From Methanocaldococcus sp. 16A (GTDB taxonomy: Archaea > AGJL01 > Methanococci > Methanococcales > Methanocaldococcaceae), in the NCBI GenBank assembly GCA_049860595.1, contig CP187551.1: DNA of 64,000 nt. One strand, 5' to 3'. Numbering within the stretch: the stretch's first letter is position 1; each line of letters opens with the position of its first letter. Positions 9,630 to 42,375 of the stretch are shown piece by piece. Below the pieces are notes generated by a model that had not been told where the DNA came from, ran no database searches, and saw only the letters and a list, made by a program, of their open reading frames with translations. The translations under genes were made by a program, and so were the position numbers.

Positions 9630-9712
9630 TGAAGCTATAGGCTTCAAAATATTCTTAATACATATAAAAAGTGCATTCAAACAGTTATTATTTATTCCTG
9701 CAAAAGTCCTAT
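9630..9712. mobile_element. Partial TAGGACTTT-family MITE-like element (right half)
   Basis: TGAAGCTATAGGCTTCA hairpin, TGCATTCAAACAGTTAT and TGCAAAAGTCCTA in the same order as in 19506-19678. Confidence 0.7.
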
Positions 9713-38877: not shown

Positions 38878-39564
38878 TTAGCTCTTTTTTAATTCTTTAA
38901 CTATGTCTACGAGCTCTTGAAGTGAGTTTATAGTATAATCGCTATAACCGTTATCTTCTATGTCTTTATATTTTCCTTTCAATATTCGAACTGTTATCAT
39001 CCCCAGTTCTTTTGCTGGTTTTATATCTTTATCTACTCTATCTCCAACATATATAGTTTCTTCAGGTTTTAAACCCATTCTACTTAGTCCATATTTAAAA
39101 AACTCTAAATGGGGTTTTCCTAAACCAAACTCCTCTGAAGTAATAACATCATCAAAAAATGGATGTATCCCCAATCTAATAAGTTTTTCCCACTGCTTTA
39201 TAGTTAATCCATCAGTTATTACACCTAACTTCAATCCCATTGCTTTAAGCTCTATCAATGTCTTTATTGTGTGTGGATAGGGTCTTAGTAATGCTACTTT
39301 AACATTATGGTAAGTTATTATTCCAGTGGTTATTATTTTTGGGTCATATCTTCCTAAAACCGCTTTAACTAAGTCATCAAAATGCTTTCCATAGTTTGAA
39401 CCTTTATCCCTAATAATTTTATTTAATATATTCATTGCTTCTTCAAAAGATATATTTAAACCAGCATCTATCATTGATTTAACTGCCTCTCTTCTTGCAA
39501 TTTCTACAAATTCTGATGAATTGTATAAGGTATCGTCCAAATCAAACAAAATTCCCTTTATCAT
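38878..39564 (-). CDS. HAD-family phosphatase (MJ1437-like)
   Basis: [22 protein letters not shown]. Confidence 0.9.
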
Positions 39565-39598
39565 AATGTTTTCCCTTTTGGCATTTTTACATATATTT

Positions 39599-39883
39599 TT
39601 ATGATTTCTTTACCTTCTCTTTAACCATCTGAAACAATCCAACAAAATCATCATCCTCTGTAACTGGAACAACAATTAATCCTAACTTTTTATGTCTCTC
39701 TATCCAACCTTCATCATAAGCAGGAACTTCTATTTTTATTGGTTCATCAGTAGGATTCCCTACTATAACATTTCTGTATGGGAAGGGCTTTACTTCCTCA
39801 TCTTCTTCATAAGGAAATGTTGTCTCTCTAATATATCCACCTAAAGCCATAGTCATTCTTGGTAATAAAACCATCTTTGGCAT
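39599..39883 (-). CDS. ehbP: Energy-converting hydrogenase B subunit P
   Basis: LGGYI.E...FPYRNVIVGNPTDEPIKIEVPAYDE.WIE.H..LGL, recognised from memory. Confidence 0.8.
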   Translation of the reverse strand: MPKMVLLPRMTMALGGYIRETTFPYEEDEEVKPFPYRNVIVGNPTDEPIKIEVPAYDEGWIERHKKLGLIVVPVTEDDDFVGLFQMVKEKVKKS

Positions 39884-40040
39884 CTATATCCCCTTTTTAT
39901 TGCTTACTAAATAGATGGTGTTAATATATTCTTACTTTCTATTAGATTTAAACTTAACTGAAAATAAACAAAATTAACTAAATAAATAATAAATCTAAAA
40001 CCCACTATTGAAAAATAGAACAATAAAAAAAGAGGAAGAA

Positions 40041-40256
<216 letters not shown>

Positions 40257-40398
40257 TTACTTCACCTTTTAGTATCTTTAATAGGTCTTTCTTAAGAAAT
40301 TCAACCTATTATAAATATCAACCTTCTATAATTTTCAATCACCTATATATACTTTTTTAAGGTATCGTAAAAATCACGGTAAAACACACCATTTTTTA

Positions 40399-40508
40399 TA
40401 GTTGTGTGCAAAAGTATCTTAATTGAAATAAGGAATTAAAGAATGCCTTCCTTTTGGAAGGCATTCAAATTGTCCTTATAAAAGCTTATTTTGTTTTGCA
40501 CACAACTA
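40399..40508. mobile_element. 110-bp MITE with 15-bp TIRs and TA target-site duplication
   Basis: TIRs TAGTTGTGTGCAAAA / TTTTGCACACAACTA, TA at 40397-98 and 40509-10, central hairpin GAATGCCTTCC-TTTT-GGAAGGCATTC; removal restores an in-frame gene end. Confidence 0.85.
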
Positions 40509-41148
40509 TAATTGGGCAGTTATCACATAATGGTTTTTTCTTACAAAATTTTTTACAGTGTTCAACAATTAATGCATGATACTCTTTGTATATCTCTAAA
40601 TCTTTTGGTAATGATTTTTCAAATATTTCTTTAATTTCATCGTATTTGGCTTTTTCATTAATTATTCCTAACCTGCTAAACATCCTTTTTGTATATGCAT
40701 CAACAACAAAGCTTTCTCTATCTAAGGCATACAATAAAATGCTATCAGCTGTTTCCTTTCCAACTCCATTTATTGATAACAACTCATTCCTTAAAGTTAA
40801 AGTGTCTTTATCTGTTTTAGCCATTTTTTCAGTGTTTCCATAATTTTCTACAATAAAATTAGTTACATTTTTTAGACGTTTAGCTTTTAAATTATAAAAT
40901 CCAGCAGGTTTTATAAGCTCTTTTAATTTATCTTCATCTATGTTTAGTATTTTTTCTTCTTCCAATAAATTTTCATTTTTTAAGTTATTAATGGCTTTTT
41001 CTACATTTTTCCAGCTTGTATTTTGAGTTAAAACTGCTCCAACAACAATTTCATACCTTGTTTCAGCCGGCCACCAATTTTGATGTCCATAGTAGTTTAA
41101 TAAAGTTTTATAGATTGTATATAATATTTCAAATTTGTTTTCTTTCAT
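40486..41148 (-). CDS. Endonuclease III-like HhH-GPD DNA glycosylase
   Basis: WWPAET, GAVLTQNTSW, GVGKETADSILLYA, VVDAY, C-terminal Cys cluster. Confidence 0.92.
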   Translation of the reverse strand: MKENKFEILYTIYKTLLNYYGHQNWWPAETRYEIVVGAVLTQNTSWKNVEKAINNLKNENLLEEEKILNIDEDKLKELIKPAGFYNLKAKRLKNVTNFIVENYGNTEKMAKTDKDTLTLRNELLSINGVGKETADSILLYALDRESFVVDAYTKRMFSRLGIINEKAKYDEIKEIFEKSLPKDLEIYKEYHALIVEHCKKFCKKKPLCDNCPIIVVCKTK

Positions 41149-41885
41149 TTATCATCCCTTATGATTACAGATTTTCCATTAAATGGATTTGCTCTCAAAC
41201 ATAACGAGTAGAGATATGGGTAGTTATCTTTTAAGTGTATTAAGTAGTTTAACCATTGGACGACCAATAATTTATAAACTCTAATAATATCGTTCTTTAA
41301 GTGGTCTAAATCGCTTTTTGGAAGATTGCTTAAATCTTCCCTTTTATGTAATTCATCTGCTAAATGAAAAACCGCTAATAACAGCTCAGTAAAGTCTTCA
41401 TGCTCCAATAGTAAAGGATTTTCCATCAATCTTAAAAGAAATTCTTTATTTTTTTCTAATAGATTTTTAAGCTCATATAAATCAATTTTCTCTATATCTA
41501 TGTTGCACTCATAATTCTTTAACAATTTTTTAGTATTTTCATACATTTTGTTGTCCCAATCTTCTGATATTTTTAAATAATCTTTTATATTTCCTAAATC
41601 CGCTTTTAAGATTATTTTTAAGAGCTCTTCACCAACACTATTGAAAAAAGAACCAACGACCATATTTAATTTTTCTAACTTTTTCATTTTCTCTCTATGG
41701 TCTAAAATGCTCTCAATAATTAAACTTACAATTAAAACTTCAATAGGAATGAACGCCAAATGTAATAAAAAATAGCTTAATATGTAATCAACTTTTCCAA
41801 AGATTAAAAAATGTATTGAGTAAATCAATATGGACAAAAAAATTAAACAAATACCTATTATTAACATATACCTTTTATCATTCAT
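41145..41885 (-). CDS. Hypothetical membrane protein
   Basis: Two N-terminal TM helices; KLNMVVG.FF, LMENPLLLEHE.FT, YPYLYSL. Confidence 0.8.
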   Translation of the reverse strand: MNDKRYMLIIGICLIFLSILIYSIHFLIFGKVDYILSYFLLHLAFIPIEVLIVSLIIESILDHREKMKKLEKLNMVVGSFFNSVGEELLKIILKADLGNIKDYLKISEDWDNKMYENTKKLLKNYECNIDIEKIDLYELKNLLEKNKEFLLRLMENPLLLEHEDFTELLLAVFHLADELHKREDLSNLPKSDLDHLKNDIIRVYKLLVVQWLNYLIHLKDNYPYLYSLCLRANPFNGKSVIIRDDK

Positions 41886-41886
41886 T

Positions 41887-42375
41887 TTATCCCCTAAAGT
41901 TCCAAATCTTATCCCCTACATAGTGAAGGTTTTTAATAGCTTTTCCTTTATCTGCTTCTTTCATCTCTTTTCCATTCATTAATGCAATTCCTACACATAT
42001 TGGTTTTTTGTGATTCTCATCTACAACAAAAACAATATCTTCCTCTTTAATATTTTCATCTGCCTCAACAATTCCCGGAGCCATTACATCTGCCCCGTTT
42101 ATTAAGAATTTTATAGCACCCATATCAACTACAACTAAATTTTTGTTAGGAAGGGATTTTAATAATAATTTTAATGTAGGAATTACTTTATCATCTTTTT
42201 TAAACGCAATTGGCTCTTTATCAACTAATATTATCTCAAAATCATCAGTTATAGCTATCTCCACATTACTTTTTTTTGGAATTATTTCATCAACATTTTC
42301 AAAAAAATTTTCTAATTCTTTTTTTATTTTTTTGACATCTTTTTTGCTTAAATAGTATCTCTTCTTTATTTCCAA
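41887..42375 (-). CDS. PUA-domain RNA-binding protein (MCT-1/Tma20-like)
   Basis: PTL, VVDMGAIKFLINGADVMAPGI, HYVGD.IW; TTG start after AGGTGA inferred. Confidence 0.9.
   Translation of the reverse strand: MEIKKRYYLSKKDVKKIKKELENFFENVDEIIPKKSNVEIAITDDFEIILVDKEPIAFKKDDKVIPTLKLLLKSLPNKNLVVVDMGAIKFLINGADVMAPGIVEADENIKEEDIVFVVDENHKKPICVGIALMNGKEMKEADKGKAIKNLHYVGDKIWNFRG

Follow-up and report, generated by a model that had tools for sequence, protein, structure and literature searches.

How can a mobile element enter the last codons of a gene and leave the protein as long as before, with a cysteine still standing where an iron–sulfur ligand is expected? The question is raised by a 64,000-nucleotide stretch of contig CP187551.1 from the heat-loving methanogen Methanocaldococcus sp. 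16A (the window in what follows), in which a miniature inverted-repeat transposable element (MITE) of 110 bp lies at the 3′ end of a gene encoding an HhH-GPD DNA glycosylase. One of its terminal inverted repeats (TIRs) is now read as the end of the protein. The explanation that accounts best for the data, and that we regard as very probable, is the insertion of a MITE with a TIR-coded tail, later than the split from the sister species, at a preferred TA dinucleotide and with IS630-type mobilisation in trans.

According to this explanation, a MITE of a genus-wide palindromic family entered an AATTAA site at its TA, which lies between the codons of the third and fourth cysteines of the iron–sulfur cluster (Cys3 and Cys4). 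An IS630-family (Tc1/mariner-type) transposase, no longer present in the genome, would have mobilised it in trans. The TA was duplicated, and the last seven codons (KKWCVLP) were severed from the gene. Translation now enters the TIR and produces IVVCKTK-stop, with the length unchanged and the Cys at the same C-x5-C position. The event postdates the split from the sister species, and the site would be a preferred target, since other subtypes of the element lie at the same TA in other species. The comparison covered 17 genomes of the genus Methanocaldococcus and 40 genomes of the class Methanococci; G000 denotes the genome of the window (1.62 Mb), other G numbers denote comparison genomes, and L numbers denote extracted loci.

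The element and the rewritten end of the gene

The glycosylase open reading frame (ORF) ends in LCDNCPIIVVCKTK and a TAA stop at 40486–40488. From Ile214 onward, its coding sequence consists of the TA and the TIR, read as I-V-V-C-K-T-K-stop. When positions 40399–40508 and one TA are excised in silico, the frame continues as TGC CCA ATT AAA AAA TGG TGT GTT TTA CCG TGA, with the stop at 40376–40374 on the reverse strand (40374–40376), and the reconstructed protein ends in CPIKKWCVLP-stop. The old and the new versions are both 220 aa in length, and both contain C-x2-C-x5-C. The sequence-only reading of this locus had described the anatomy of the element (110 bp, 15-bp TIRs, TA flanks, 11-bp hairpin) and the in-register replacement of the cysteine beside an intact displaced tail; every one of these details was confirmed by sequence inspection and a pattern search. 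The coordinates are given in Table 1.

With zero mismatches, TAGTTGTGTGCAAAA occurs twice in the window, as the element's own TIRs only. At up to three mismatches, four matches stand against an expectation of 3.7, and the signal is therefore confined to the two perfect ones. Complementarity of the TIRs continues to 18 nt (40396–40413 and 40494–40511), and the 116-nt stretch 40396–40511 is an imperfect palindrome, with 56-nt arms that are 71% complementary and 4 nt between them. Its stems are of 18, 7, and 11 bp.

Table 1. Features of the locus in window coordinates, ordered along the window.
Feature	Position	Strand	Basis or remark
Hfq/Sm-like gene, downstream of the glycosylase gene	40041..40256	-	Pfam Hfq, E 5e-8
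Likely BRE/TATA AAAAAAGTATATATA	40344-40358	-	~40 bp past the element; kept in 8/8 aligned congeners
Displaced original gene 3′ end, K-K-W-C-V-L-P-stop, including the A of the TA	40374..40396	-	Direct reading; end TTACCGTGA common to G014
TA target-site duplication, gene-distal copy	40397..40398		Filled/empty comparison
Non-autonomous palindromic MITE, 110 bp, no ORF of its own	40399..40508		TIR search, folding, empty sites in G005 and G014
Left TIR TAGTTGTGTGCAAAA, non-coding arm	40399..40413	+	Pattern search
7-bp stem beside the central hairpin	40428-40434 / 40473-40479		RNA and DNA folds
Central hairpin, 11-bp stem 40441-40451/40456-40466, 4-nt loop 40452-40455	40441..40466		RNA and DNA folds
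HhH-GPD DNA glycosylase gene, 220 aa, MpgII/MagIII-like (MJ1434 type)	40486..41148	-	ORF; Pfam HhH-GPD, E 1.9e-24
Right TIR, codons V215-V216-C217-K218-T219; with the TA gives I214	40494..40508	-	Pattern search and ORF
Cys217 codon TGC within the TIR	40498..40500	-	Aligned with the fourth cluster Cys of EndoIII 1orn
TA target-site duplication, gene-proximal copy, across codons Ile213/Ile214	40509..40510		Filled/empty comparison

Duplication of the TA is seen when filled and empty orthologous sites are compared: the window has ccaatTA[element]TAaaaaatgg, while the empty sites read ccaatTAaag in G005 and caaatTAagg in a gene remnant of G014. The empty site of G005 (ccaatTAaagaattctgc...) encodes the protein end CPIKEFCLSK-stop. 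The TA-targeting insertion proposed earlier is thus visible in the relatives themselves; an element-free end of the CPIKEFC type is found in G005, and the end IVVCKTK was not found without the element in the relatives compared.

The sister genome is G014, in which 332/380 (87.4%) of fourfold degenerate sites are identical to those of G000, compared with 72.7% in G001 and 68.9% in G007. All that is left of the glycosylase gene in G014 is a ~190-nt remnant of its 3′ end, frameshifted and located beside hfq (about 905–1090 of L196, which is G014:C1:429500–432500). Since the TA of this remnant is empty, the insertion is younger than the G000/G014 split. The derived tail end TTACCGTGA is common to both genomes, which means that the tail diverged before the insertion. 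Over 116 positions, three substitutions are private to the window copy, whose best relative, at 94% identity, is found in G014. As judged from these sites, the insertion is real, TA-duplicating, and later than the split from the sister species. Its earlier description as "recent" is justified at the scale of the genus: its position after the split and the three private substitutions support the term, but no identical copy exists.

The G014 copy closest to that of the window lies 250 bp from the dead glycosylase remnant. We treat this proximity as a coincidence, because that copy is just 1% better than the next one. It interrupts a DUF234-like gene fragment that adjoins the remnant. The former neighbours of the glycosylase gene are now 260 kb away in G014.

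The gene itself had been taken for an endonuclease III gene. Its membership of the endonuclease III (EndoIII) superfamily, through the HhH-GPD domain, stands; the identification with Nth itself does not. Among PDB structures, MagIII of H. pylori, which has no cluster, ranks first (1pu6, E 3e-29), and EndoIII structures come next. The best NCBIfam model is PRK13913 (3-methyladenine glycosylase) with 140 bits, under its cut-off of 192, and the second is the nth model TIGR01083 with 85 bits against a cut-off of 211.7. In the alignment to EndoIII 1orn, Glu occupies the position of the catalytic Lys (GVGKETA vs. GVGRKTA). Given the nth score below the cut-off and the Glu replacing the catalytic Lys, the predicted product is an MpgII/MagIII-like HhH-GPD glycosylase of the EndoIII superfamily and not a true Nth. 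MJ1434 is its probable orthologue, an assignment that we presume, together with the hfq neighbourhood, from the gene order of M. jannaschii. In an excerpt of PMC2926615, MJ1434 is assigned to the MpgII family, uracil is reported not to be processed, and the substrate is called unknown. A passage of PMC11754123 gives Glu at the Nth Lys position as a trait of MpgII, MagIII, and the M. jannaschii protein. An orthologue is present in 13 of the 17 genomes of the genus; the other four have no such gene at E ≤ 1e-20.

The fourth cysteine

The presumed [4Fe-4S] ligands C202-x5-C208-x2-C211-x5-C217 align with the four Cys of EndoIII 1orn (cpiivvck vs. cpllhlcr in phmmer). The protein therefore has a four-Cys loop of the C-x5/6-C-x2-C-x5-C type whose fourth Cys is encoded by the TIR, and the register with the fourth cluster ligand that the sequence-only reading had noticed holds. 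From this alignment, Cys217 would be expected to bind the [4Fe-4S] cluster, and it may have helped the allele to survive. The earlier reading had also seen in this supply of a ligand by the TIR the reason for the tolerance of the insertion. This stronger claim is not shown, and it is somewhat weakened by the three-Cys homologues, the Cys-less allele of G007, and the C-x7-C congeners described below, as well as by the loss of the gene in the sister species.

The most serious rival explanation is that the Cys match has no selective meaning, the fourth ligand, the tail, or the whole gene being dispensable in this clade. We put its chances a little short of even. No other TA exists between Cys3 and Cys4, so the one used sets the register, and TGC is present in most TIR subtypes. 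Any family member at this TA and in this frame yields a Cys, so the register follows automatically from the site and the frame. Only three Cys are seen in 19 of the 120 closest homologues, and two others lack the motif. The remaining 99 do have the fourth Cys, which argues for its importance; a greedy pattern binned 84 of them at x5 and 15 at x6–x9, and inspection by eye showed an additional Cys at x5 in at least three of those binned at x9. The absence of the gene from 4/17 genomes and its decay in G014 favour dispensability, while dN/dS values of 0.04–0.14 in 10/10 pairs (five orthologues, codons 1–205) indicate purifying selection on the glycosylase where it is kept. Of four homologues compared in an excerpt of PMC2926615, only MJ1434 has the full four-Cys set. 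Against this, the fourth Cys (C219) of the related Sis-HhH-GPD is needed both in vitro and in vivo according to a passage of PMC11754123.

Gene ends that depart from the x5 spacing occur within the genus as well and speak for dispensability. C-x7-C is found in G012, G013, G008, and G016, because the ORF there runs into the hfq TATA block, and the G002 protein ends in CPISH-stop. The four C-x7-C genomes (L058–L061) are without the 39-bp long tail; their proteins end in CPIKKVYICD(GDYKR), and one stretch of DNA serves as both coding sequence and promoter.

In G007 and in the metagenome contig L076, an element occupies the same TA as in the window. Its TIR is identical to that of an insertion sequence (IS) in G012, its left junction is 3 bp shorter, no old tail is present, and the protein ends in CPIVFFKINKIY-stop, without a fourth Cys. 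Besides G007 and L076, a 14-member protein cluster contains this allele. Codons 79–150 of G007 (L055) and L076 differ by 12 substitutions with dN = 0, which would suggest that a Cys-less allele is functional. However, dS is 1.38 in codons 7–78, 0.33 in codons 79–150, and 0.06 in codons 151–222, and the upstream 600 nt cannot be aligned without gaps. This mosaic indicates, at the sequence level, recombination within the gene between Methanocaldococcus lineages. Little of the divergence thus postdates that insertion, and little is said by it on later selection, so the dN/dS of this pair is weakened as proof of a functional Cys-less allele.

The element family, its target sites, and its hairpin

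About 31 related loci were found in the genome of the window. The 22 full-length ones have an identity of 72–91% with the window copy, and TATAG...CTATA bounds every one of them; the TIR pattern gave 59 matches against six for a reversed control. Family copies are present in 9/17 genomes of the genus at E ≤ 1e-5. TIR arms number 139 in G014, 47 in G001, 24 each in G007 and G012, and 12 in G005, compared with 35 in G000, and the control gave no matches in these five relatives. The window element is small, has TIRs and many relatives, and carries no transposase gene, as is characteristic of a MITE. The claims that such elements move and that further TIR copies exist in related genomes are both supported by this multi-copy family with its filled and empty sites.

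Each relative has its own dominant TIR subtype: TTGTGTGC in G014 (in each of the matches that were listed), TTTTTTGC in G001 (37/47 arms), GTGTTTTTC in G007 (15/24 arms), and TTCTTTTC in G012 (the majority of its 24 arms). The TA is preceded by T in 31/41 copies and followed by A in 27/40, so the preferred target is TTAA-like. Among copies in the same orientation, the 4-nt loop of the central hairpin varies, some having TTTT and others AAAA (or TTAT/ATAA); the tip of the hairpin appears to flip between copies.

A second palindromic MITE-like family, with the ends TAGGACTTTCGCAGG and arm pairs ~60–95 bp apart, is far more abundant in the same genome, with 229 arm matches genome-wide at up to two mismatches; in the window, its arms lie at 9698, 10542/10605, and 42476. 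Several copies of the family studied here adjoin copies of this second family.

As for the source of mobility, the sequence-only reading had called the element "IS630/Tc1-like". A 1155-bp IS of G012 (L066:885–2039) is flanked by TA and contains two overlapping frames; its orfB scores 159.9 bits on the IS630 model NF033545 (cut-off 100). Its ends, TATAGTGTTTTTCAAAA on the left and TATAGTTCTTTTCAAAA on the right, recur as the TIRs of MITE subtypes that occur in G007, G001, and G012. One G012 MITE has 26/26 terminal bases of this IS together with the family core of the window copy (ATAAGG...GAAnnCCTTCC-loop-GGAAGG...TTCA...CCTTA is common to both). By sequence, this intermediate ties the palindromic Methanocaldococcus repeat family to an IS630-family transposase. 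The IS630 assignment is well supported by these sequences for the MITE family as a whole, and the enzyme that moved the window subtype was presumably of the same family. Within that genome, pairs of TIRs 756–3710 bp apart, which could have marked long elements, are neighbouring small copies or solo arms, as judged by their coordinates. An A7G slippery run is located at the frame overlap of the G012 IS, which suggests that this element may use programmed frameshifting. Degenerate relatives of the IS were seen in G038, which belongs to another genus.

The target of the window copy is filled in other species, too. In G001, an element lies at the same TA; the protein ends in CPIIVFCKTSLNK-stop (IIVFC), the old tail KKFCLSQ-stop follows behind it, and there is an extra TA at the right junction. 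At this site, the copies of G001 and of G007 reach an identity of 60% and 62% with the window copy, below that of any paralogue of the latter in its own genome, and each is of the subtype that dominates in its genome. The presence of different subtypes at the same TA in two other species points to an insertion hot spot. Only one close relative of the locus, the G007-type contig L076, was found in metagenomes among at least 80 loci listed. Eight metagenome proteins (P0002–P0006, P0008, P0009, and one variant) have tails, CPIRTFCKLLSR/H, that might be TIR-derived as well.

Four further G000 copies were examined for re-use of their sites. Two of them are in G000 only. At another locus, the elements of G000 and G001 are inserted at TAs 4 bp apart inside AAATTTAATTAAAC, so these insertions are certainly independent; G014, G005, G007, and G012 are empty there, and the TA duplication is seen in AATTA[...]TAAAC against the empty AATTAAAC. 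The fourth copy is at a 170-aa ORF, where G014 has an element at the same TA and G001 none; the two elements are 78% identical (90/116), and their flanks are 96–98% identical. Re-use of sites by different subtypes is thus a property of the family, which we read from the sequences as a strong target preference. The 170-aa ORF itself (G000:C1:1288985–1289497, that is, L006:1587–2099, minus strand) is a second TIR-ended gene, the last eight residues of which, YSCVQKYI-stop, come from the TIR in a different frame. The site in G012 that is orthologous to the G000 copy c294759 (G012:C89:23656–25908) has ~2.2 kb of extra DNA between its flanks.

Several observations weigh against the explanation preferred here. 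The TIR of the window subtype equals the end of the G012 IS at only 14/17 positions, and a search of the window genome for a DDE_3 (PF13358) transposase found none; within the genus such a transposase is present in G012 only (1/17), and within the class in 3/40 genomes. The homologues with three Cys and the Cys-less G007-type allele belong here as well. Copies that occupy the same site are far more diverged than their flanks, at the window site (60%) as at the 170-aa ORF. A single old insertion followed by intragenomic homogenisation could be the source of such diverged copies at shared sites, and precise loss could in principle account for the empty sites.

The last two points make up a rival explanation, in which one insertion in the common ancestor of G000, G001, and G007 was later homogenised in each genome, and G005 and G014 became empty by precise loss. 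The same TA is filled in three species, each copy carries the TIR subtype dominant in its genome, and both TIR arms are always of the same variant. Chance co-occupancy is unlikely as well, given ~24,553 TTAA sites and tens of copies per genome. The tree of the 2.3-kb locus (2343 columns, nine genomes) leaves room for such a history, being unresolved with a support of 40–55, and for this reason it was left out of the ordering of events. On the other hand, the sites of G014 and G005 are clean and bear no footprint, and at the AAATTTAATTAAAC locus independence is certain. The G007 insertion is in a short form of the gene end with a different left junction, the G001 copy has its extra TA, and the tail end shared by G000 and G014 had diverged before the insertion. 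Altogether, we find a single ancestral insertion improbable.

Insertion after the split, at a preferred TA, may be extended one step further. The TA between Cys3 and Cys4 would then be a true hot spot that was hit independently in two or three lineages; IIVVC of G000 and IIVFC of G001 would represent parallel exaptation of TIRs into the Fe–S loop, with selection keeping the Cys-restoring alleles, and the family would select a few AATTAA-type sites at gene ends. This extended scenario is speculative and, in our estimate, rather unlikely. If it were true, a specificity for AATTAA-type sites far above that for just any TA would account for the co-occupation of 3/5 examined G000 sites by other subtypes elsewhere.

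A further rival explanation is that the element is kept for its hairpin, for instance as a transcript end or an insulator that separates the glycosylase gene from the hfq promoter, and that the new coding end is a by-product. The element does fold very stably: −50 kcal/mol as RNA (z = −12, none of 200 shuffles as good) and −31.7 kcal/mol as DNA (z = −8.5). In 28 copies, compensatory double changes are found in 7/30 predicted pairs, four of them in the central stem, which is no transposase end; for example, a terminal-stem pair is G-C in 18 copies and U-A in 10, with none broken, and a central-stem pair is C-G in 18 and U-A in eight. The copies are mostly intergenic, only 4/31 touching the 3′ end of an ORF, and the site upstream of the hfq promoter block is filled in three species. 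The covariation, however, goes back to a few subfamily events with many heirs; it shows that the palindromy was maintained and does not indicate the reason. Palindromy is typical of IS630-type MITEs, no T run follows the hairpin, five congeners have no element at the site, and an Rfam scan of positions 39000–42000 at E ≤ 1 gave nothing but two chance-level matches. We consider this role quite improbable.

That the element lies just upstream of hfq, as the earlier reading had it, is correct. The insertion leaves the conserved AAAAAAGTATATATA block upstream of hfq intact, and this block is likely, by its sequence, to be the hfq promoter. Between the block and the gene, the hfq leader contains a 32-bp palindromic stretch (40279–40310) that is unique in the genome and absent from G001, G005, G007, G012, G013, G008, and G016; a related stretch is seemingly present in G014.

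Finally, intron-like removal of the element from the mRNA, so that the KKWCVLP tail is still made, can be rejected with near certainty: in G000 and G001, the Cys codon and the stop of the displaced tail do remain in frame, but with eight codons only an open frame means little, the tail is lost in G007, and the archaeal splicing endonuclease requires a bulge-helix-bulge, which the perfect 18-bp helix of the terminal stem does not offer.

Comparison with known systems

The locus is a clean natural example of a mobile element that rewrote the end of a protein but did not break it, with the ancestral state preserved beside the element and empty sites in relatives. It also provides a natural series of fourth-ligand mutants in an orphan archaeal glycosylase, which comprises the original tail, two TIR tails with a Cys, one without it, and the C-x7-C variants. 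In addition, the case exposed the re-use of the same insertion sites across species.

A literature search found no paper on miniature inverted-repeat elements with archaeal endonuclease III. A search for MITE, Methanocaldococcus, and IS630 found a review only, and a broader query gave, among the matches listed, plant or unrelated work. The conversion of mobile DNA into coding sequence is neat but not unprecedented, since translated Methanocaldococcus palindromes are cited as having been reported in 2005 and IS630-type MITEs are common at gene ends; it is an unusually well documented example.

Among known pairs of an IS630 IS and a MITE is RUP with IS630-Spn1. IS630-family ISs and their MITEs resemble the family studied here in the TA duplication, the short perfect TIRs, the hairpin-shaped body, the tens of copies, and the absence of the transposase from most carriers. 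The window family differs in being archaeal (Methanococcales), in the TIR of the window subtype, which deviates at 3/17 positions from the only intact IS found, and in its strong re-use of sites between species.

On the side of the protein, the nearest counterpart is MJ1434 of M. jannaschii, once reported as a uracil glycosylase. Both have the HhH-GPD domain, Glu at the Nth Lys position, and a four-Cys C-terminal loop; in the window protein, however, the final seven residues are a transposon end.

The Rickettsia palindromic elements are selfish palindromes that are tolerated and translated in housekeeping genes, as cited in an excerpt of PMC2996958. Those elements are internal, in frame, and read through fully, whereas here the frame ends after seven codons and the tail is replaced.

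The closest precedent is the palindromic repeats of M. jannaschii (MJRE; Suyama, Lathe & Bork 2005, FEBS Lett 579:5281), some of which were reported to be fused into protein-coding genes without destroying them, according to the citations in PMC2229807 and PMC2996958. As far as these citations describe them, MJRE and the window element are alike in being short palindromic repeats of the same genus, some of which lie within coding genes. The present case differs from MJRE in the species, in the C-terminal replacement that restores the position of a metal ligand, and in the documentation of filled and empty orthologous sites; the family studied here is, moreover, rare (12 TIR arms) in the empty-site genome G005.

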